NCBI GenBank assembly: GCA_963781885.1
Contig: CAWAHW010000007.1
Location: forward strand, 256,001 to 320,000
Reading direction: 5' to 3'
DNA length: 64,000 bases
Origin: an uncultured Spirochaetota bacterium
Lineage (GTDB): Bacteria > Spirochaetota > Spirochaetia > SZUA-6 > Fen-1364
Part shown: positions 132-16,156 of the stretch, in pieces
Layout of the letters: each line of letters starts with the position of its first letter
Position numbering within the stretch: position 1 is the stretch's first letter
Position numbers and translations under genes: made by a program
The notes under the pieces: generated by a model
What the model was told of the DNA's origin: nothing
What the model saw: only the letters and a program-made list of their open reading frames with translations
Databases searched by the model: none

Positions 132-1357
132 AGGACACCGTCATCACGAACGTGCGCATCGTCACCCCCGGCGTCGTGATCGACCATGGCACCCTGACGG
201 CGCGCGACGGGCGCATCGTGTCGATAACCCGCGGCGCGGCCTCGTTGGACCGCGACGCCGCGGACGGCCGCGGCAGGCTGCTCCTGCCGGGTTTCATCGA
301 CCTGCACAACGACGGCATCGAGCAGGAGCTGGAGCCGCGACCGCGCGCCCTGTTCCCTCTGTCGGTGGCCCTGCCCGCGTTGGAGTCCCGGCTCGTGAGC
401 CACGGCATCACGACCATCTTCCACTCCTTCTCCTTCATGGACGGCCGGGAGGGAAGCCTCGAGTCCGAGCGCCTCGAGCCGACGATACGCGAGCTCAACA
501 GGCTGCGCCGCACGGGCGTGATCCGTCACCTCGTGCACGCCCGTTACGAGATGGTCGAGTTTCAGCACTTCGAGCGGCTCCGCCGGCTGATCGACGACCG
601 GCAGGTGGGGCTGGTGTCCTTCATGGATCACACCCCGGGGCAGGGGCAGTATCGGAACGTGGAGCACCTCGTGAGCTACTACGCGCGGAAATACAACTCC
701 ACACGGGCGGAGGTGGACGCGCTGATCGAGGAAAGAAACAGGAAGGCCCTCAATCCCGCGGTCGGGGCGACACTGGAGAAGCTCGCGGCGCACGTCCGCG
801 CGGCGGGCCTTCCCCTTGCGTCGCACGATGACGATACCCCCGAAAAGGTCGCCCGCATGCGCGCGCTGGGTGTCGGCATCTGTGAGTTTCCGGTGGACCC
901 GGCAGCCGCGCTCGCCGCCGCGCGCGGGGGGCTGCACGTCGCGGTGGGCGCCCCGAATGTCCTGCGGGGAAAATCGACCACGGGCAACCTGAGCGCGCTG
1001 GAGGCCATTGCGAGCAACGCGGCGGACATCCTCTGCTCCGACTACTACACCCCCGCGCTCCTGCACGCGGTGTTCCGTCTCGTGCGGGACCGGGTGCTTC
1101 TCTTGCCCGATGCCGTGCGGATGGTGAGCGTGCATCCGGCGCGCGCCGCGGGCCTGGACGCGGAGCTCGGCGCCCTGGAGGTCGGCAAGCGCGCCGACAT
1201 GGTCCTCGTGAACGACAGCGAGGTCCCGGCCGTGGTCGGCGCCTGGGTGGGCGGGCAGCGCGTCTATGAGAAGCGCGACGGCACGCTGGATGTCACGGGC
1301 GAACGGTGGGCGGAGGAAGCGGCGCCGAAGACGAGGGAGACGGCCCGTGCTGTATGA
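128..1357 (+). CDS. phnM: alpha-D-ribose 1-methylphosphonate 5-triphosphate diphosphatase
   Basis: Amidohydrolase motifs PGFIDLHND, SFMDHTPGQGQY, ASHDDDT, CEFP, GAPNVLRGKS and LCSDY. Confidence 0.93.
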   Translation: MKDTVITNVRIVTPGVVIDHGTLTARDGRIVSITRGAASLDRDAADGRGRLLLPGFIDLHNDGIEQELEPRPRALFPLSVALPALESRLVSHGITTIFHSFSFMDGREGSLESERLEPTIRELNRLRRTGVIRHLVHARYEMVEFQHFERLRRLIDDRQVGLVSFMDHTPGQGQYRNVEHLVSYYARKYNSTRAEVDALIEERNRKALNPAVGATLEKLAAHVRAAGLPLASHDDDTPEKVARMRALGVGICEFPVDPAAALAAARGGLHVAVGAPNVLRGKSTTGNLSALEAIASNAADILCSDYYTPALLHAVFRLVRDRVLLLPDAVRMVSVHPARAAGLDAELGALEVGKRADMVLVNDSEVPAVVGAWVGGQRVYEKRDGTLDVTGERWAEEAAPKTRETARAV

Positions 1358-2033
1358 GATCGACATGAAGCCGCGCGGCCGCGGCGCCGCCCCGGGCGCC
1401 CGGCTTTCCGAAAAGCCTTTCATCCATGACGGCGCCATGGTGGAGGCAAGCCGTCTGGGCTCCTGGACGGAAATCGGGCGGAACAGTCACGTCGTGGAAT
1501 CGACCATCGGCGACTACACCTACGACGATGGCGATGCCTCCATTTTTTACGCGCAGATCGGGAAGTTCTGCTCCATCGCGAACAGGGTGCGCATCAATCC
1601 CGGCAACCATCCATCGGACCGGGTCGCCCAGCATCACATGACCTATCGACGGGTCAAGTTCGGACTGGATACCCATGATGATGAGGGGTTTTTCACCTGG
1701 CGCCGCGCGCACCCCTGCATCATCGGACACGACGTGTGGATCGGGCACGCGGCGGTCGTGATGCCGGGCGTGAAGATCGGCACGGGCGCCATCGTCGGCT
1801 CGGCGGCGGTGGTCACGCACGACGTGGAGCCGTACACGGTCGTGGTCGGCGTGCCGGCCCGGCCCCTGCGCGCGCGCTTCAGCGGCGAGGTGATCGCGAA
1901 GCTGCTGGAAAGCAGGTGGTGGGACTGGAGCCGCGAGGAGCTTGTCGCCAACTGGCGCGACCTGTGCGACCTGGACGCTTTCCTGGCGAGGTATGCGGCG
2001 CCCGCGGCCCGCGCGCGCGCGACGGCACCGTGA
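1347..2033 (+). CDS. phosphonate-metabolism hexapeptide-repeat acetyltransferase (CAT/Vat-like)
   Basis: IGKFCSIA, NPGNHP and IGHDVWIGH hexapeptide repeats. GTG start at 1347 follows a GAGGGA SD and overlaps the phnM stop. Confidence 0.85.
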   Translation: MLYEIDMKPRGRGAAPGARLSEKPFIHDGAMVEASRLGSWTEIGRNSHVVESTIGDYTYDDGDASIFYAQIGKFCSIANRVRINPGNHPSDRVAQHHMTYRRVKFGLDTHDDEGFFTWRRAHPCIIGHDVWIGHAAVVMPGVKIGTGAIVGSAAVVTHDVEPYTVVVGVPARPLRARFSGEVIAKLLESRWWDWSREELVANWRDLCDLDAFLARYAAPAARARATAP

Positions 2034-2839
2034 ATCCCCATCTCCTTGCAACGGCCACCGTGGCGGCGCGCGCCGCGGGCGACATCATCGCGCGCAGCAG
2101 CGGCCGCGCCCTTCACGTGGATGATGCACCGGCGCACGACCTGAAGCTCGCTCTGGACCGCCTCTGCGAAGCGGAGATACTGCGCGTGATCCGCGCCGCC
2201 TTCCCCGACCACGCGATCCTTTCAGAGGAGACGGGATACATACCGGGCCGCGCCTCATTCCTCTGGATCGTCGACCCCCTGGACGGCACGGTGAACTTCT
2301 ACCACGGCATACCGTTCTTCTGTACCAGCATTGCCTGCTACGCGCTGCGGGAAGAGGCGACGGGGCACCGGTTCCCGGACGGCCGGACCCTTGGAGACCC
2401 GTTGGTCGGCGTGGTCTACAATCCGCTGCGGGAGGAGATGTTCGTCGGCGCGGCAGGCGAGGGGGCATCGCTGAATCACGTGCCGCTTGCCGCGCCGACG
2501 GCGTCACGTCTGGACCAGGCGGTCGTCGCACTTTCCTTTGGCGCGCGCGAAGAGAGCATCGCCTGCATGAGCCGGCTTCTTCCCGACCTTGTGCGGTCGA
2601 CGCGGAAGATACGGAGCTTCGGGAGCACCGCGCTGGACATTGTGCAGGTCGCGGCGGGACGCGTCGGGGCTTTCGTCCAGATGGGCACGAATCTCTGGGA
2701 TTTCGCCGCGGCCGCCGTGGTGGCCCGGGAGGCGGGCGCGGTGGTCGACGCGCAGGAATACCGACGCGGCCGGTGGAAGATCGTCGCCAGCGCCGCGGGC
2801 ATCTACGATGCGATCAGGGCGAAGGTGGGGCATGAGTGA
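2030..2839 (+). CDS. inositol monophosphatase (FIG superfamily) protein
   Basis: Motifs ILSEE, WIVDPLDGTVNF, RSFGSTALD and WDFAAA. GTGA overlap with the upstream gene. Confidence 0.88.
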   Translation: MNPHLLATATVAARAAGDIIARSSGRALHVDDAPAHDLKLALDRLCEAEILRVIRAAFPDHAILSEETGYIPGRASFLWIVDPLDGTVNFYHGIPFFCTSIACYALREEATGHRFPDGRTLGDPLVGVVYNPLREEMFVGAAGEGASLNHVPLAAPTASRLDQAVVALSFGAREESIACMSRLLPDLVRSTRKIRSFGSTALDIVQVAAGRVGAFVQMGTNLWDFAAAAVVAREAGAVVDAQEYRRGRWKIVASAAGIYDAIRAKVGHE

Positions 2840-3392
2840 GGCCGTCCGTTTCATCATCATCACGACGCCGCCTGCCGAAACGTCGCGGGAGATTGACGTC
2901 GTACGCCGCCTGGTCTGCCAGATCGGCAGGTCGCAGGCCGCGCTTGCCTATCCTCCGCACGTGACGCTCCGAACCGGCGCGCGCGTGCCGCCCGAGCTCA
3001 TCCCGACATTCCTCGATGCATTCGGCGCGGCGGTCGGCGCGTGGGAGCCCTTTCCCATCCGCACCGCCGGCATCTGGCAGACAACCTATTTGGACGGGGA
3101 AAGGGAAAAATTCCTCGTTGGCTACAGGGTGGAGAAGAGCCCCGCGCTCGCGGCATTGAACGAAAGGCTCCTGCGGGTATCGACATGGCGCGCAAGCAAC
3201 AGGCTGCACTTCGAGCCGCACCTCACCCTTGCATATGACGACCTGGACCTCGACGGCTACCGATCCATCGAAAGCTGGCGGGAGCAGAGCCCCCGCGGCC
3301 TGCCGGAAGGTTTCACGTGGACCTGCGACAACGTGGGTCTGTTCTATCTCGATGAGGAAGACTGGACGCCGTACAAGGTGTGGCGCGTCTGA
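2832..3392 (+). CDS. 2H phosphoesterase (2'-5' RNA ligase/LigT-like fold)
   Basis: Two HxT motifs, PPHVTLR and EPHLTLAY. The start overlaps the IMPase stop. Confidence 0.82.
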   Translation: MSEAVRFIIITTPPAETSREIDVVRRLVCQIGRSQAALAYPPHVTLRTGARVPPELIPTFLDAFGAAVGAWEPFPIRTAGIWQTTYLDGEREKFLVGYRVEKSPALAALNERLLRVSTWRASNRLHFEPHLTLAYDDLDLDGYRSIESWREQSPRGLPEGFTWTCDNVGLFYLDEEDWTPYKVWRV

Positions 3393-3422
3393 GCTGGCCG
3401 CGGGAGGCGCCGCCCGCCGCGC

Positions 3423-4241
3423 CTAGATGGCGACGTGTCGCGTCTTCTTGAGCCGGGTCGCGCCGATTTCGAGCGCAATGGCCACGAGCAGGATGAGCCA
3501 CGTGATGTACCCCACCTCGCCGATGTTGAAGTAGAAGCCCGATGCCATGAAGAGATCGAAGCCGATGCCCCCGGCGCCCGCGGCGGCGCCCATGGCGACG
3601 GCGTTCGTGAAATTGATCTCGAAGCGCATGAATGTCCACGAAATCACCGACCCCATGGACGACGGGATGACGGCGCGCGTGACGATCACGAGCCACCCGG
3701 CACCGGTCGCTTTCAACGCCTCGATGACACCCGTGTCGATCTCCTCGAATGCTTCGGAATACGCTTTCACGAGGTACGCGAAGGAATGGAATGTCATGCC
3801 GACGACCGCGGCCACGCTTCCCAGGCCTGCGCCGATGGCGAAGATCAGCACCCAGAGCACCGTCGGCACGGCACGGATGAACGCGACGAAGCCCTTCAGG
3901 ACATTGACGACCGCGCGGGGGCTCAGGTTCTTGGCCGCAAATGGACCGACGATCAGGGCCAGGATGGCGCCGAGGAGCGTCGTGAGAAAGCCGAGACTGA
4001 GCGTCAGCAGGATCGCCTTCAACGCCTCCAGGAAACTGAAATGCTGCGCGGAAGGCCGGGTCATCATGCCCCCCAGGTCGTGAAAGAGCTTGAGGGAAGC
4101 CTTGCCGACGTCGAGATGCTTCGTGTCGAGGAGAAAGAATCCCGCGACCGTGACGCCCGCGAGGAGGAGCAGGGTCGCGTTCAGCGCAACGGTGGAGGCG
4201 GTCCTCCGGCGGACGGGCAGATGCCGCGTTGGCTCTTTCAC
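3423..4241 (-). CDS. phnE: phosphonate ABC transporter permease
   Basis: Motifs IRAVP, EAFEEID..IEALKATGA, RFEINF and GAGGIG. GTG start overlaps the stop of the upstream permease. Confidence 0.9.
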   Translation of the reverse strand: MKEPTRHLPVRRRTASTVALNATLLLLAGVTVAGFFLLDTKHLDVGKASLKLFHDLGGMMTRPSAQHFSFLEALKAILLTLSLGFLTTLLGAILALIVGPFAAKNLSPRAVVNVLKGFVAFIRAVPTVLWVLIFAIGAGLGSVAAVVGMTFHSFAYLVKAYSEAFEEIDTGVIEALKATGAGWLVIVTRAVIPSSMGSVISWTFMRFEINFTNAVAMGAAAGAGGIGFDLFMASGFYFNIGEVGYITWLILLVAIALEIGATRLKKTRHVAI

Positions 4242-5038
4242 AGGATGACTCGACGCAGGGCGTTGGACACCGTCTCGATGACGATGACGACAATCACCAC
4301 ACCGATGACGACCAGGGCGGCAGAGGGATAGTTCATGCTCTTGTAGTACACGTCGAAAAGGAAGCCGATGCCCGTTCCCGTGAGGATGCCGACCAGGGTC
4401 GCGTCCCGGATATTCGTCTCCACCATGTAGAGCATCCAGCTTGCGATCTGCGGCATGATGGAGGGAAAGACGGCCTGGGTCACGGTCTGCAGCCAGGAGG
4501 CGCCGGACGCGCGCAGGGCCTCCACCGAGCTGTCGGCGGTTTCCTCGATCACCTCGGTATAGGCGCGCGTGAGATAGCCCACCGTGCCGATGAAAAGCGC
4601 GAGGAGACCGGTGAGGACGTTCTGACCGAATGAGAGAAGGAAGATCATCGCCCACGCCACCACGGGTATGTTCCGGCAGACGGAGGCGATGAGCCGGACG
4701 AGCAGCGTCACCGTCGCGTGGGGGCGCGTCGTGCGGGAGGCGAGGATCGCCAGGGCCAGCGCGGCGGCCGCGCCCAGCACGCTCGCCATGACCGAGACGA
4801 GTATCGTCTCACCGAGCTTCATCACGATGTTCGGCAGCGCCCGCAGGGCGCGCGCGTTGGGGATGAAGTTGACGGCGAGCCATTCGATCGCCTTGGGGAA
4901 GGAACGCAGACAGTCGCGGAAGCTGAAATCCGTGAGAAGGGAGGAGCCCGCCGTCAGCGCGCCGATGACAAGAAGCCCTCCCAGGAACGCGAGGTTGCGG
5001 CGGAGGAGCACCTTGCGCACGGCAAGGGCGGATGTCAT
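4238..5038 (-). CDS. phnE: phosphonate ABC transporter permease
   Basis: Motifs RNIP, VEALRASGA and ETNIRDATLVG..GTGIG. ATGA overlap with phnC. Confidence 0.9.
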   Translation of the reverse strand: MTSALAVRKVLLRRNLAFLGGLLVIGALTAGSSLLTDFSFRDCLRSFPKAIEWLAVNFIPNARALRALPNIVMKLGETILVSVMASVLGAAAALALAILASRTTRPHATVTLLVRLIASVCRNIPVVAWAMIFLLSFGQNVLTGLLALFIGTVGYLTRAYTEVIEETADSSVEALRASGASWLQTVTQAVFPSIMPQIASWMLYMVETNIRDATLVGILTGTGIGFLFDVYYKSMNYPSAALVVIGVVIVVIVIETVSNALRRVIL

Positions 5039-5808
5039 CCCGCCTGCTCCTCGAACAGGATGTCGTCCGCCTCCGATCCGTAGATCTCCGCGACGACCTT
5101 CTTTTTCAGCTTGTGCGCCTCGTCGTCGTAGCAGATCCTGCCTTCGCGGATGCCGATGATGCGGTCGGAATACCGGATGGCGACGTCGACCTGGTGCAGG
5201 TTCATGAGGATCGTGATGTTCATCTCGCGGCAGATGTGGTGGAGCTTGTCCATGATCTTCTTCGCGGAGCTGGGGTCGAGCGACGCGATGGGCTCGTCGC
5301 AGAGGATCACCCGTGGCTCCTGCACGAGCGCCCGCGCGATGCCGACCCGCTGCTTCTGCCCGCCGGAGAGCTGGTCGCACCGCTTGTGCATCTGGTCGGC
5401 AAGCCCGAGCCGGTCCAGCACGTCGTAGGCGCTTTCCTTCTCCGCCGCCGTGTAGAGGCCGAAGACGCCCGCAAGCGTCGACTTGTACCCCAGCCGGCCG
5501 TGCAGCACGTTTTCAAAGACCGTCTGCCGCGGCACGAGGTTGAAGTGCTGGAAGATCATGCCGATGCGCGTCCGAAGGCGCCGCAGCTCCGTCCGCTTCA
5601 GCGCCAGGACGTCCATGCCGTCGAAATCGATGTGTCCCGCGCTCGCCTCCACCATCCGGTTCACGCAGCGCAGGAGGGTGGACTTTCCCGCTCCCGACCT
5701 GCCGATGATGGTGACGAACTCGCCGGCTCTCACTTTCAGGCTGACGTCGGAGAGCGCGGCGACGTCCTTGTAGTTCTTCGTCAGGTGCTTGATTTCCAGG
5801 ATGGCCAT
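5035..5808 (-). CDS. phnC: phosphonate ABC transporter ATP-binding protein
   Basis: Motifs GRSGAGKS, LSGGQKQRV, DEPIASLDP and NLHQV. Confidence 0.93.
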   Translation of the reverse strand: MAILEIKHLTKNYKDVAALSDVSLKVRAGEFVTIIGRSGAGKSTLLRCVNRMVEASAGHIDFDGMDVLALKRTELRRLRTRIGMIFQHFNLVPRQTVFENVLHGRLGYKSTLAGVFGLYTAAEKESAYDVLDRLGLADQMHKRCDQLSGGQKQRVGIARALVQEPRVILCDEPIASLDPSSAKKIMDKLHHICREMNITILMNLHQVDVAIRYSDRIIGIREGRICYDDEAHKLKKKVVAEIYGSEADDILFEEQAG

Positions 5809-5830
5809 GGGGATCGCTCCTTGAACAAAG

Positions 5831-5853
5831 GCCCCGGGGCGCGCCCGGGGCCG
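5831..5853 (-). terminator. GC-rich stem-loop between phnD and phnC (mRNA stabiliser or attenuator)
   Basis: ggccccggg-gcgcg-cccggggcc inverted repeat just downstream of the phnD stop. Confidence 0.5.
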
Positions 5854-5877
5854 GGTCGAACGGGGAATATTCGCTTC

Positions 5878-6909
5878 TTACTGCATCAGGGCGCGGATGT
5901 CGCTGTACCAGACGCCATCCACGGCGACGAAGTGTTCCTTGTCCGTCTTCGCCCAGAGTCCCTTGTAGGGGTTGCCGCTCTCGTCCTTGTAATCCTTGGG
6001 CGTGAATATCTTCGGGTTGTTCGAGGTGGAATCCGCCGTGAAAGCGGCGCGGAGGGCCTTGAACATTGCCGGGTCGACCAGATCGGTGTTGACGATGATC
6101 GGGGCCTGGCGGACCGTCGATGCGGAGATGACGGTGAAGGAGGCGCCGGGGACGGTGTCAAACGGTGCGTCGGCGCCCTGCTTCACCTTGTACACCGCGC
6201 CGGGGGTGTTCACCTTGCCGGAGACGAGGTTGAAGTAGCTGCTCACGTCGGTGTCATCCACGGCGCAAACGTCTGCCTTGTTCGAGAGGACGTTGAAGAT
6301 GGAGCCCTGGTGCGACTGGCCGAAGAGAACCTGGCCGAAGAACTGGTCGGGTCCGCCCTGGAGGAAGAGGTCTTCCACCTTCTGGTCGGTCCAGCCCATC
6401 TGCTTGGCGAAATAGGATTTGATCACGTTCGCCGGAATGACGAAGCCCGATGTCGAGCTGGAGGACACGAACGACATCGTCTTGCCCTTGATATTGTCCA
6501 GCGCGTAGGCGTTGCCCTTCATGTACTGGGGCGCGTCCGCGGTCCTGACCGCGATGCGGCTGTAATAGACCGAGTCGGCAAGGGTGCCCTTGGCGCTGGA
6601 GATGGTGACAAGCGGCACGACCTTGGGGTTCTTCTGGGCTGCCTGGATGTAGCCGACGGCGCCCGGGTAGCAGATGGCCGCATTGCCCGTCGCGATGGCC
6701 TCGATGGCGATCACATAGTCGGTCGTGAGCTTGTCGATGACCTGCCGACCCGTTGCCTTGGCGATCAGGTCGTCCAGCGAGCCGCGGGCTGCCTTCCAGT
6801 CCTCACCCGAATTGTTCGGGTACCAGACCACCACGAGGGGTTTGTCCGCGGCGGCGATCGCTCCGACCGCGATCAGCCCTGCCGCGAGGACGAGCAGAAG
6901 CTTCTTCAT
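5878..6909 (-). CDS. phnD: phosphate/phosphite/phosphonate ABC substrate-binding protein
   Basis: Signal peptide, YYSRIAV, the SSSSTSGF anion-binding motif and the SH motif. First gene of the phnDCEE operon. Confidence 0.88.
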   Translation of the reverse strand: MKKLLLVLAAGLIAVGAIAAADKPLVVVWYPNNSGEDWKAARGSLDDLIAKATGRQVIDKLTTDYVIAIEAIATGNAAICYPGAVGYIQAAQKNPKVVPLVTISSAKGTLADSVYYSRIAVRTADAPQYMKGNAYALDNIKGKTMSFVSSSSTSGFVIPANVIKSYFAKQMGWTDQKVEDLFLQGGPDQFFGQVLFGQSHQGSIFNVLSNKADVCAVDDTDVSSYFNLVSGKVNTPGAVYKVKQGADAPFDTVPGASFTVISASTVRQAPIIVNTDLVDPAMFKALRAAFTADSTSNNPKIFTPKDYKDESGNPYKGLWAKTDKEHFVAVDGVWYSDIRALMQ

Positions 6910-6960
6910 GATTTATCCTCCTTGACGCGAACGCCGTGTCGGCGTCCACGTTCGCGGAGG

Positions 6961-7014
6961 ACTGTAGGAGCGCGCCGTTAGGAAAGAATGAGCGTTCTGT
7001 TAGGAGAGAGTGAA
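6961..7014 (-). promoter_or_regulatory. Pho-box-like array plus -10 element upstream of phnD
   Basis: Minus strand has TTCAC/CTAAC/CTCAT/CTAAC at an exact 11-bp period (+ strand starts 7010, 6999, 6988, 6977), followed by TACAGT (-10). Confidence 0.7.
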
Positions 7015-7094
7015 TTTTCGCCCGAACAGCGGTTGGGCGTGACGGCGCCCGGTGCGGCGGCGGACAGGGCGAGCGGGGGCGAAGCCGGTGACTG

Positions 7095-9276
7095 CTACAG
7101 CGCGCACCCCACGGCATACCCTGCCTTGACCGCCTCGAAGATCCGTCCGACGTGGAAGGCATCCCCGATGCAGTGGATCCCCGGGGCCACGCCGCCACTC
7201 ACGCAGACGTCATACAGGGACATGTCGGGCGCAAGCCCTGTCGCCAGTACAACGGCATCCGCCTCCAGCCGCTCCTCCACCATCTCCTCGCGTAGCGCGC
7301 GGCCCAGCGGGTTGGGGACGCTCTCCGGCAGGAGCGGCGTCCACGTGCAGAAGGGGTCAGGCACGGTCTTTGATGCGTTGCGTGAGATGACGACCTCGGG
7401 GACAAGGATTTCGGTGACCCGCGTGCAATTCAGGAGCTGCACCTTCGCCTGCTCCAGCACGTGAATGAGGTGACCGCGATTCGCCGTGCACACCCCTTTC
7501 ATGAATGCGGGCAGCATCTCGATGACCGTGACCTCCTTGCCCAGCTCCACGGCGAGGAAGTGGGCGCATTCGCATCCGGTCGGTCCGCCGCCGATCACGA
7601 GCACGCGGCGCGCCGCGTCGAGCAGCGCGGGATTTTCCAGGAGATCGGTCGCGCGGATCACGCCTGATGAATCCACTCCCTTGACGGGAAGGGCCGTTTG
7701 CCGCGCCCCGGTGCAGATGACGACCTCATCGTAGCGTCCCTGCTTCAGCGTTTCAACGTTCGGCGCCGCGCCGAGCTGCACGTGAAGGGAGCCGGCCCCC
7801 TGCGCCTCCTGCACGCGGTGCTGGAGATGGGAAAGATAGTTCGCCACCTCGTACTTGATGCGCGGCCGCGAACCCGGCACGAGCATGCCGCCGATGCGCG
7901 CGCGCTTCTCGAAGAGAGTGACGGTGTGACCCCGGCGCGCGGCCGTGAGGGCGCACTGGAGGCCCGCCGGTCCGGCGCCGACGACGGCGATGTGCCGGGC
8001 CACGGCCGCGCGCCCCGGGTCCTCCGGCAGCGAGTCTTCGAAACCGGTGCGCGGGTTGACGGCGCACTGGATGTGGCCGCCTTCCACGATCTCGTTCAGG
8101 CATCCTTCCTGGTCGCCGATGCACGGCGTGATGTCCATGAGCCTTCCCGTCCGTGCCTTGTTCGGCCACTCAGGGTCGGCCAGCAAGGGACGGGAAAGCA
8201 TCACCATGTCGCACGCCCCGTCGCGAAGGGCCTGCTCGGCAAGGTCCGGGTATCCAAGCTTGCCGACCGCCACGATGGGAATGGGCACGCCCGCGTTCGA
8301 CACGATCCCGCGCTCCGCGAAATGTCTTTTGACGGCCTGCGCAACCGGCAGGAAGCACCCTGACGGTGCCGACAGGGGCGGATGAGGCAGCCACCAGTTG
8401 TCGTACCCGCCGAGGTCGACGTCGAAAATGTCCACGCCTGCTTTTACGAGATTCTCCATGTAGGCGAGCGTCATCACGACGGTCCGCTCGCGCCGGAACT
8501 TCCGGAGCGTTTTCACGCTATCCATCCGCTTGCCGTAGGTTTCCGCCAGCGCGAGCGACAGGTCGATGCGGTACATCAACGGGTACTGCGGCCCGACCCT
8601 TTTCCGAATCTCTTTCGTCATCTCCACGCCGAAGGCCTGCCAGTCCGCGAAGTGCCCCCACCGTCTCCTGTTGAACGCGGGGTTTGCCATTTGCTCGAGC
8701 AGGTAGCCCTCGTGCCCGTGGAGGTAGACGCCATCGATACCCAGGGACATCGCGTTTGCCGCGGCTTGACCGGTTGCGCGGATCAGGGCGCGGCACTGGC
8801 GGTCGGTGAGCCGCCGGGCAGGGGATCTGGGGAATGTAGTAGTTGCGATTCCACGATGCCGACACCGGCAGCGCGTGCTTCGACATGAGGCATTCGGGAG
8901 AGCCGACCCTGCCCATGCCCGCGGTGAGCTGGATGAAAAAGCACGCGCCGTGGGCGTGGACCGCGGTGGCAATGTCGCGCCAGCCGCTGAAGACGCTGCG
9001 CGAGCCTTCGACCCGGGGGAAATAGCTCTTGCCTCCGGGCTCCGTGACGGTGGGATCGATGCGATGATCGACCGGTATGAGGCCGGAGGTGATCAGGCCC
9101 GCGCCGCCGCGCGCCCTCTCGGCAAAATACTCGATCATCTTGGGCGAAGGCCGCCCCGTCTCCTCCGCCATGCCGAAGTTCCCCATGGGACCCATGCAGA
9201 TGCGGTTCTTTATCGACAGGTGATTCACCCGCACGGGGGAGAACAGCGATGCGTAGGGGTACAGACTTTTCGTCAT
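7095..9276 (-). CDS. NADH:flavin oxidoreductase, 2-enoate-reductase/OYE family with Fe-S and FAD domains (apparent frameshift near 8817)
   Basis: N-part has KNRICMGPM and ERARGGAGLI. C-part has YLHGHEGYLLEQ, CIGDQEGC..CAVN and two GxGxxG motifs. Removing one G from GGG 8816-8818 joins the frames (IPQIPCRRLTDRQ). Confidence 0.85.
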
Positions 9277-15187: not shown

Positions 15188-16156
15188 CTATCCCGGTGGG
15201 TAGGCCCCTTCGCGCTTCCAGACGTCCATCATCAGCTCGTAGCGGGAAAGCGACATGCCCGTGTAGACGCAGTTGCTGGTGGAAAAGACGTAGCCGCCGC
15301 CCGGCATGCCGTTCCGCAGGGCGTCGCGGCAGGATTCCACGACCTGCTCGTCAGTCCCCGTCTGCAGCAGCCCGCAGTTGACGTTGCCGATCAGGCACAC
15401 ACGCTTCCCGTACTTTCGCTTCACCTCCGCAATATTCACGCCGGCCTGCGGATCCAGCGAGTGCAGGGCATCGGGCCGGCAGTCCACGATCTGGTCGACG
15501 ATCGGCATGATGTTGCCGTCCGTGTGCTTGATGGTGTAGTAGCCCATGGATCGATAGCCCGCGATGAGCCGGGCAAGGTGGGGGGTGACGAACTCCGCGA
15601 ACTGGGAAGGGCTCAGGAAGGGTCCCGTGTTCAGGCAGTAGTCCGTGCAGAGGGCAAGACCGTCAAAGATGCCCTTGCCGGCAAGACGCGCGAAGCGTTC
15701 CAGGCCGCGGGAGACCATCAGGGTGCACTCCCGCTGCACCCCCTGAGGGTCGTCGGCAAGCCGGAAGGAGAATTCCTCCATGTCGCTGCCATCCGGCATG
15801 CCCAGCGTGGCATCCGCGTGGCACATGAGGAAGTACCGCGTCCCGGTCTGCTCCCGGATGTACTCCGCCGTGCGCAGCTCTGAGTCGGGCATCCCGGGGA
15901 CCTCGTGCACGAAGATGGCGCAGTGATCGAAGCGCCGCGCCGTCTCGATGTACGAATCGCCCGCGTCGGCGACCTGCCGGCGCTTCTCTTTCCCGCTCAT
16001 CTGGTCCCACTGGGAGAGCGAGCGGTGCGATGGATGCACTTTGCCAAGCAGCTCCATCGTGAGGAAAAAGACGAGCTCGAAAGTGGGAACGTGCCCCGGG
16101 GCCTGCTTCCCTTCCAGGGCGGTGATGAACTTCTGGCGGGGCGTGAGGGTGTCCAT
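15188..16156 (-). CDS. uroporphyrinogen decarboxylase/MtaA-CmuA fold protein
   Basis: Motifs FLSPSQFAEFVTP, IKHTDGNI, HSLDPQAG, LIGNVNC and GGGYVFSTSNC. Confidence 0.85.
   Translation of the reverse strand: MDTLTPRQKFITALEGKQAPGHVPTFELVFFLTMELLGKVHPSHRSLSQWDQMSGKEKRRQVADAGDSYIETARRFDHCAIFVHEVPGMPDSELRTAEYIREQTGTRYFLMCHADATLGMPDGSDMEEFSFRLADDPQGVQRECTLMVSRGLERFARLAGKGIFDGLALCTDYCLNTGPFLSPSQFAEFVTPHLARLIAGYRSMGYYTIKHTDGNIMPIVDQIVDCRPDALHSLDPQAGVNIAEVKRKYGKRVCLIGNVNCGLLQTGTDEQVVESCRDALRNGMPGGGYVFSTSNCVYTGMSLSRYELMMDVWKREGAYPPG

Follow-up and report, generated by a model that had tools for sequence, protein, structure and literature searches.

We analyzed a stretch of 64,000 nucleotides, called here the window, from an uncultured Spirochaetota bacterium (assembly GCA_963781885.1, contig CAWAHW010000007.1, positions 256,001 to 320,000). 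The host is a soil or peat spirochaete, and its genome, referred to as G000, is 92.6% complete. The window begins inside an operon for carbon-phosphorus (C-P) lyase. The last two genes of this operon encode a phosphomonoesterase of the inositol monophosphatase (IMPase) family and a 2H phosphoesterase, and it is these two proteins, which may finish the pathway in place of PhnP and PhnN, that are considered here. C-P lyase is the main route by which bacteria gain access to the phosphorus of methylphosphonate, glyphosate and similar compounds, and in oxic waters it is a source of methane as well. In gene surveys the steps that follow methane release are scored by phnP and phnN or by phnPP, and clusters like the one described here would therefore be read as incomplete.

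The genes in the window were identified with the use of Pfam and NCBIfam profiles. All genes of the operon lie on the plus strand. The first feature is the 3' end of phnL (positions 1-131), the remainder of which lies upstream of the window; the complete open reading frame (ORF, at 15430-16131 of locus L006) matches TIGR02324 with 259.7 bits (cutoff 256.3). It is followed by phnM at 128-1357, which encodes the ribose 1-methylphosphonate 5-triphosphate diphosphatase (NF011990, 404 bits, cutoff 233), and by a phn-associated hexapeptide-repeat transferase at 1347-2033 (TIGR03308 phn_thr-fam, 254.7 bits, cutoff 201.65). The IMPase-family protein, a proposed ribose bisphosphate phosphatase, is encoded at 2030-2839 (PF00459, 159.4 bits, cutoff 27). 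The gene for the 2H protein, a proposed phosphodiesterase for 5-phosphoribosyl 1,2-cyclic phosphate (PRcP), occupies 2832-3392 (PF13563, 48.5 bits, cutoff 27). The profile matches bear out the gene identities and coordinates that a preliminary description of this DNA had given for 2030-3392. The product of 1347-2033, which that description called an acetyltransferase, is a left-handed beta-helix acyltransferase of the phn-type TIGR03308 family.

The genes phnG, phnH, phnI, phnJ, phnK and phnL are located directly upstream in the contig in the same direction as phnM. The operon hence reads phnGHIJKLM-transferase-IMPase-2H, with its 5' end just upstream of the window. The preliminary description had also stated that the genes all overlap at their start and stop codons. 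This is the case for phnL and phnM (GTGA, 128-131), for the transferase and IMPase genes (GTGA, 2030-2033) and for the IMPase and 2H genes (ATGAGTGA, 2832-2839). For phnM and the transferase gene it depends on the start codon of the latter: the two overlap by 11 nt if translation begins at the GTG at 1347, and they are separated by a 7-nt gap if it begins at the ATG at 1365. The GTG is favoured because the N-terminus is conserved in relatives; in 10 of them the tblastn alignments of the transferase start at query residue 1. In seven relatives the IMPase ORF stops 4 nt past the start of the 2H gene. A convergent transporter operon begins after a gap of 30 nt past the 2H stop codon, and therefore the 2H gene is the last of the operon. 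A scan for a terminator 3' of this stop codon found none. Among sequencing runs, those listed for positions 1300-3400 of the window comprised no RNA data set, only three DNA runs that share few of its words.

A scan of 35 related loci (L007-L040 and L057), three of which end before the relevant position, found a homologue of the transferase in 27. In the S. meliloti pSymB record a DapH/DapD/GlmU-related protein is annotated after phnL.

Finishing enzymes and protein families

In E. coli the PRcP made by PhnJ is processed by PhnP, a protein with a metallo-beta-lactamase (MBL) fold, and by the P-loop kinase PhnN, a ribose 1,5-bisphosphokinase. The search for these and for the known alternatives, both upstream of the IMPase gene and throughout the genome, gave no canonical match in the operon or in G000. 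The best match of PhnP (TIGR03307) in G000 scored 29.7 bits against a cutoff of 272, and PhnN (TIGR02322, cutoff 156 bits) had no match there at E≤0.001. DUF1045 (PF06299) had no match in G000 either; this profile was silent in the control genomes too, and the positive control, S. meliloti pSymB, gave 145.7 bits. Both DUF1045 copies in the S. meliloti record were matched in two pieces, and the comparison of families was made instead by a Pfam scan of 25 members of the 2H family (see below). A PhnPP gene (NF041661, cutoff 500) linked to the phn cluster was not found in G000, where the best match, at about 109.9 bits, lies on another contig. This unlinked PHP protein fits NF041577, a phosphatase of pAp (3',5'-nucleoside bisphosphate), better than PhnPP (211.6 vs 109.9 bits), and its gene is situated beside Mla genes; it was rejected as a PhnPP. 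None of the 31 genomes that are positive for PhnJ or for the 2H gene contains a PhnP above the cutoff. A PhnN above its cutoff is present in one of them (G415), in which phnN is located directly upstream of the 2H gene.

The protein encoded at 2832-3392 belongs to the 2H superfamily: it matches PF13563 above the cutoff, it carries both H-x-T/S motifs (H43-V-T45 and H130-L-T132) and it has a predicted 2H fold. H43, T45 and H130 are invariant across the 25 aligned family members; at position 132, 24 of them have T or S, and the one exception is apparently frameshifted. All 25 sequences match PF13563 and PF02834, and none matches PF06299 (DUF1045/RcsF) at E≤1. The cyclic phosphodiesterase (CPDase) family PF07823, which has a cutoff of 21 bits, is matched at E≤1 by nine of the 25 (best E 1.7e-6), while the window protein stays below that cutoff with 11.8 bits (E 0.19). 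There is no NCBIfam model that covers the phn-linked 2H protein. The family is also rare: of 1.84 billion representative proteins, 73 match at E≤1e-30 and 129 at E≤1e-10. At 90% identity it comprises 114 clusters.

An AlphaFold2 model of the 2H protein, computed from the 25-sequence alignment, had a pLDDT of 95 and a pTM of 0.88. Its best Foldseek match was the A. thaliana CPDase for ADP-ribose 1'',2''-cyclic phosphate (Appr>p; 1jh6, E 4.3e-9, TM 0.70), followed by B. subtilis YjcG and E. coli LigT; the matches listed at E≤0.001 were nearly all 2H proteins. The same A. thaliana enzyme is the best match in the PDB at the sequence level (E 4.9e-4). The CPDases of plants and yeast (1fsi, 1jh6; PF07823) thus share the fold and the two HxT/S motifs with the window protein, but their sequence identity to it is 15% and the PF07823 cutoff is not reached. 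In eukaryotes, CPDase serves to remove a by-product of tRNA splicing. It converts Appr>p, the nearest known chemical analogue of PRcP, to the 1''-phosphate, and its substrate contains a ribose 1,2-cyclic phosphate like that of PRcP. A second 2H protein with a PF13563 match (43.3 bits) is encoded in G000 at C5:291429-291884; it may be a general RNA cyclic phosphodiesterase.

The IMPase is a member of the PF00459 family and keeps the motifs SEE, DPLDGT and WDFAA, which correspond to what we take to be the metal- and substrate-binding motifs of IMPases (the metal-binding Glu, DPxDGT and WDxAA). The DPLDGT motif and the WD of the third motif are conserved in all 16 of the 2H-adjacent IMPases compared, and 14 of the 16 retain the acidic EE pair. 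The closest relatives in the PDB are SuhB/IMPase proteins (E 8.7e-39). However, the window protein remains below the NCBIfam equivalog cutoffs for SuhB (142 vs 332 bits), HisN (118.3 vs 275), CysQ (70.4 vs 229) and IMPase/FBPase (118.5 vs 264).

The PF00459 family occurs in 313 of 401 Spirochaetota genomes, a sample drawn evenly from the phylum and not chosen by the 2H feature. In a set of five close relatives, all contain the phn-linked IMPase, and three of the five have in addition a separate typical copy, which scores higher with the family model. In a maximum likelihood tree of 31 sequences the 16 2H-adjacent IMPases, one of them from a Planctomycetaceae metagenome-assembled genome (MAG), form one group (support 82/80), which is apart from 12 housekeeping IMPases of Spirochaetota. 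The 2H-adjacent proteins have a common insertion of 15-30 residues that is absent from the housekeeping copies, and the C-terminal region of the phn-linked proteins is shortened. Hence the phn-linked IMPase has the fold family and the metal-binding motifs in common with SuhB and with the archaeal IMPase/FBPase, but it differs from SuhB in its score below the equivalog cutoff, in the clade-specific insertion, in the shortened C-terminal region and in its location in a phn operon. On these grounds it is a dedicated phn-linked paralogue.

Linkage to phnJ and partners of the 2H gene

A pattern scan, in which each species was represented by one genome, yielded 24 loci that contain a homologue of the 2H gene, mostly from Spirochaetota MAGs. 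In 22 of these loci core phn genes are located within 10 kb of the 2H homologue. Of the remaining two, one is truncated roughly 1 kb 5' of the 2H gene and the other is a 23%-identical match from an archaeon. In 17 of the 24 loci the gene immediately upstream of 2H is that of the IMPase; these loci come from two phyla and represent more than one gene order. The pair proposed in the preliminary description thus shows a conserved linkage to phnJ.

The same relation was found in the sample of 401 genomes. PhnJ is present in 12 of them, in one case as a fragment. The 2H profile gave six strong matches (E 3e-85 to 4e-46), all of them in PhnJ-positive genomes and 4-6 kb from phnJ; a strong match was absent from all 389 PhnJ-negative genomes of the sample. 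Three further matches near E 1e-7 look like other 2H proteins. Among the 61 nearest relatives of G000, which were likewise sampled without regard to the 2H gene, PhnJ and the 2H protein each occur in 17 and both together in 16, so that 16 of the 17 PhnJ-positive genomes contain the 2H gene and one has PhnJ only. The 2H gene is missing from 43 of the 44 PhnJ-negative relatives, and in the last one the gene is reduced to a C-terminal 2H fragment. Several genomes of this set also figure in the 24-locus scan, and relatives do not count as independent cases; the numbers serve to show exclusivity and should not be read as a statistical test. Of the 20 other members of the genus, 13 have PhnJ and 14 the 2H protein (one of them as that fragment only), and the phn cluster therefore seems to have been gained and lost as a unit. 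The linkage to phn persists despite changes in gene order: the 2H gene precedes phnG in locus L019 and has a divergent orientation in L025, and in L022 it is the IMPase-2H pair that precedes phnH. This 2H family belongs exclusively to phn clusters.

The partner of the 2H gene varies among the 24 loci of the pattern scan. Apart from the 17 loci with IMPase, a PhnPP-like PHP protein is encoded directly upstream of the 2H gene in two (L021 and L028); its best NCBIfam match is PhnPP, with 161-201 bits against the cutoff of 500. Two others (L019 and L025) contain, elsewhere in the same cluster, a fusion of a PhnPP-like domain with an IMPase. These fusion ORFs encode 581 amino acids (L019 18241-19986, plus strand) and 544 amino acids (L025 1671-3305, minus strand), and they match both PF00459 and NF041661 (245-250 bits, cutoff 500). 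Since the IMPase is fused to a PhnPP-like domain in phn clusters, the fusions tie it to the processing of PRcP. One locus, L023 from a Desulfobacteraceae MAG, has phnN (200 bits, cutoff 156) directly upstream of the 2H gene, so that phnM, phnN and 2H stand in a row at 6029-7228. The last two loci have no partner: in L020 the gene directly upstream is phnM and a partner is not obvious, and in L030 there is nothing.

Five further loci (L031-L035) from one family of the phylum sample show the order phnM, xylose-isomerase-like TIM barrel, 2H, transferase. The TIM barrel (PF01261), for which no NCBIfam model gives a match, follows phnM at, e.g., L031 12079-13032, and equivalents are present in L032-L037. 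Two of these loci, L036 and L037, lack the 2H gene and have the TIM barrel together with a GNAT protein. In L039 and L040, again without 2H, a PhnPP-like PHP protein follows the transferase in the very position that the IMPase-2H pair holds here. Genome G445 has PhnJ and no 2H gene, and no recognisable finishing enzyme adjoins its phnM. The slot of the IMPase-2H pair is, in other words, held elsewhere by enzymes known or annotated for the processing of PRcP or of ribose 1,5-bisphosphate.

A predicted route from PRcP to phosphate

On balance we lean towards the reading that the 2H protein opens PRcP and that the IMPase removes the phosphate thus exposed, which would give ribose 5-phosphate and inorganic phosphate (Pi). 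PhnJ leaves the phosphorus of the phosphonate as PRcP. The 2H enzyme would then hydrolyse one P-O bond of the cyclic diester to ribose 1,5- or 2,5-bisphosphate, and the Mg-dependent IMPase paralogue would take off the new monoester as Pi. The ribose 5-phosphate could be converted to phosphoribosyl pyrophosphate (PRPP) by the ordinary PRPP synthetase. Together the two proteins would be the finishing enzymes in place of PhnP and PhnN, and their net chemistry would be that of PhnPP, split over two proteins with translationally coupled genes. We infer the substrates, the regiochemistry (the bond that is cut), the phosphate removed and the order of the steps. Ribose 1,5-bisphosphate is the more likely product of the 2H enzyme, because phnN is paired with 2H in L023 and because the fold of the 2H protein resembles that of CPDase. 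IMPases accept ribose 2'-phosphates such as 2'-AMP, and for this reason ribose 2,5-bisphosphate is also a possible intermediate.

The preliminary description had proposed this route as a replacement of PhnP and PhnN. The lack of the canonical enzymes, the linkage to phnJ and the natural replacements in the same slot agree with it, and the proposal is partly supported. The clusters in which 2H coexists with a PhnPP-like protein (L021, L028) or with the fusion (L019, L025) are not predicted by a one-for-one replacement; because of this coexistence the enzymes are not simply interchangeable, and labour may be divided differently between them in these clusters. Several other observations also weigh against the proposed route. 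The IMPase gene of the operon is the only PF00459 match in G000 and, because it is the sole gene of its family there, its product may also serve housekeeping functions. The support for the clade of 2H-adjacent IMPases (82/80) is moderate and the tree has a midpoint root only. In the five loci L031-L035 the 2H gene is paired with the TIM barrel, which also occurs in clusters without 2H. Finally, the G000 assembly is only 92.6% complete, and full-length but weak PhnP-like MBL proteins (72-95 bits), unlinked to phnJ, are encoded in eight of the 31 genomes positive for PhnJ or 2H; these eight do not include the closest relatives of G000.

We rank three other explanations below the proposed route. 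One is that only the 2H protein acts in the pathway, as an analogue of PhnP, and that the IMPase is a general inositol or sugar phosphatase, or a phosphatase for scavenging under phosphate starvation, which is in the operon by chance. That G000 has no other PF00459 gene, that the best PDB relatives are SuhB/IMPase proteins and that in 12 of the 2H loci an IMPase neighbour is lacking (two of these carry the PHP fusion in the cluster) would all be expected in this case. A chance neighbour, however, would hardly be placed directly upstream of 2H in 17 of 24 loci from two phyla and in more than one gene order. Nor would it be expected to group apart from the housekeeping copies with an insertion of its own, to coexist with a second typical IMPase in three of five close relatives, to occur in two phn clusters as a fusion with a PhnPP-like domain or to hold the slot that PhnN or a PHP protein holds elsewhere. 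We therefore consider this explanation unlikely.

An altogether different assignment would make the 2H protein a ThpR/LigT-like enzyme, acting on RNA as a 2',3'-cyclic phosphodiesterase or ligase, with no bearing of its operon position on phosphonate breakdown; this is extremely improbable. It is true that the Pfam matches, PF13563 and PF02834, are 2'-5' RNA ligase families and that LigT is among the fold matches, but the confinement of every strong 2H match in the phylum sample to the neighbourhood of phnJ, with none in its 389 PhnJ-negative genomes, speaks against an RNA role, and the other PF13563 protein of G000 could serve RNA metabolism. The third explanation is the reverse order of the two steps. 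Here the IMPase would remove the 5-phosphate of PRcP, and the 2H enzyme would open the ring of the remaining ribose 1,2-cyclic phosphate to give ribose 1-phosphate, which a purine nucleoside phosphorylase would then join to the adenine released by PhnI, so that the phosphate derived from the phosphonate is freed and adenosine is regenerated. The linkage to phnJ fits this order equally well. The closest fold match, the Appr>p CPDase, leaves the phosphate on C1, and ribose 1,2-cyclic phosphate accumulates in phnP mutants of E. coli, so that the 5-dephosphorylated species exists in cells. Against it, the pairing of PhnN with 2H in L023 implies that the product of the 2H enzyme there is ribose 1,5-bisphosphate, with the 5-phosphate kept. 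Furthermore, known substrates of the IMPase family carry the scissile phosphate beside a ring hydroxyl or, in a bisphosphate, at C1; they are not known to carry it on a primary 5'-carbon. Overall, the reverse order appears quite improbable.

The route in which 2H opens PRcP ahead of the IMPase can be placed, more tentatively, in a wider frame. It is plausible, albeit far from assured, that Spirochaetota and a few other lineages use a modular finish to the C-P lyase pathway, in which the 2H enzyme would always open PRcP while an interchangeable partner (the IMPase paralogue, a PhnPP-like PHP protein, the PHP::IMPase fusion, PhnN or the TIM barrel) sets the fate of the product. If so, the IMPase paralogue would be a dedicated ribose bisphosphate phosphatase and the pair a further, undescribed route from PRcP to Pi.

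Compared with the E. coli system, the IMPase-2H pair has the same position at the end of the phn operon and the same proposed task, the processing of the PRcP made by PhnJ. The folds are unrelated, with a 2H protein for the MBL protein and an IMPase phosphatase for the P-loop kinase, and the E. coli route ends in PRPP while the predicted end products here are ribose 5-phosphate and Pi. The net reaction predicted here, from PRcP to ribose 5-phosphate and Pi, is also that of PhnPP, the cyclic phosphate dihydrolase of the PHP family (NF041661). PhnPP is one enzyme for both hydrolyses, whereas two unrelated enzymes would be needed here; its relatives hold the same operon position in the related loci L039 and L040, but they also occur alongside 2H and fused to IMPase. 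The PhnPP route runs via ribose 2,5-bisphosphate. Ghodge and colleagues reportedly found in 2013 that PhnPP alone turns PRcP into ribose 5-phosphate and that ribose 1,5-bisphosphate is not accepted. A summary of both the PhnP and the PhnPP branch is given in PMC8774927.

The nearest precedent is RcsF/DUF1045 (PF06299), a protein of the same superfamily with the same operon association and the same proposed role, which occurs in alpha- and beta-proteobacterial phn operons without phnP. In three publications this 2H phosphodiesterase is proposed to stand in for PhnP where phnP is missing (PMC3840354, 2013; PMC3266647, 2012; PMC10574752, 2023); the most recent, a review, words the role as "could potentially" (PMC10574752). 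The DUF1045 gene is usually found beside phnN (PMC3266647), and the phnN-2H pairing in L023 resembles this arrangement. DUF1045 is nevertheless a separate family, as none of the 25 members of the present family matched it at E≤1, and the usual partner here is IMPase and not PhnN. The idea that a 2H protein replaces PhnP is thus already in print. The new elements are the distinct 2H family described here, the IMPase that accompanies it and the way in which its partners are swapped among loci. Literature searches on IMPase in C-P lyase operons returned nothing relevant, a provisional result from searches that did not cover the main review of the field.

If the proposed route is correct, phosphorus from phosphonates would be released directly as Pi by the 2H and IMPase proteins. 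A function would then be assigned to a rare 2H family without a curated model, and the substrates of the IMPase family would be extended by a new kind. For enzymologists, the partner swaps that occur in nature are a ready comparison set.

Neighbouring genes

The convergent operon downstream of the 2H gene (3423-6909, minus strand) encodes a phosphonate ABC transporter with matches to PF12974 (Phosphonate-bd), PF00005 and, twice, PF00528. It comprises phnD at 5878-6909, phnC at 5035-5808 and two permease ORFs within 3423-5380; all of these coordinates are those of the longest ORFs, whose true starts are not fixed. On the other side of the C-P lyase operon, genes for a phosphonatase and a class-V aminotransferase are located upstream of phnG in divergent orientation. 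Farther upstream of the phn island, the region 2831-7907 of locus L006 contains an exopolyphosphatase-like ORF, two dTMP-kinase-like ORFs and a gene for a CHAD-domain protein, which may form a wider phosphorus-scavenging neighbourhood. Just past the transporter operon, a long ORF on the minus strand of the window (7095-8972) encodes a 2,4-dienoyl-CoA reductase-like protein with Oxidored_FMN and pyridine nucleotide-disulphide oxidoreductase domains.

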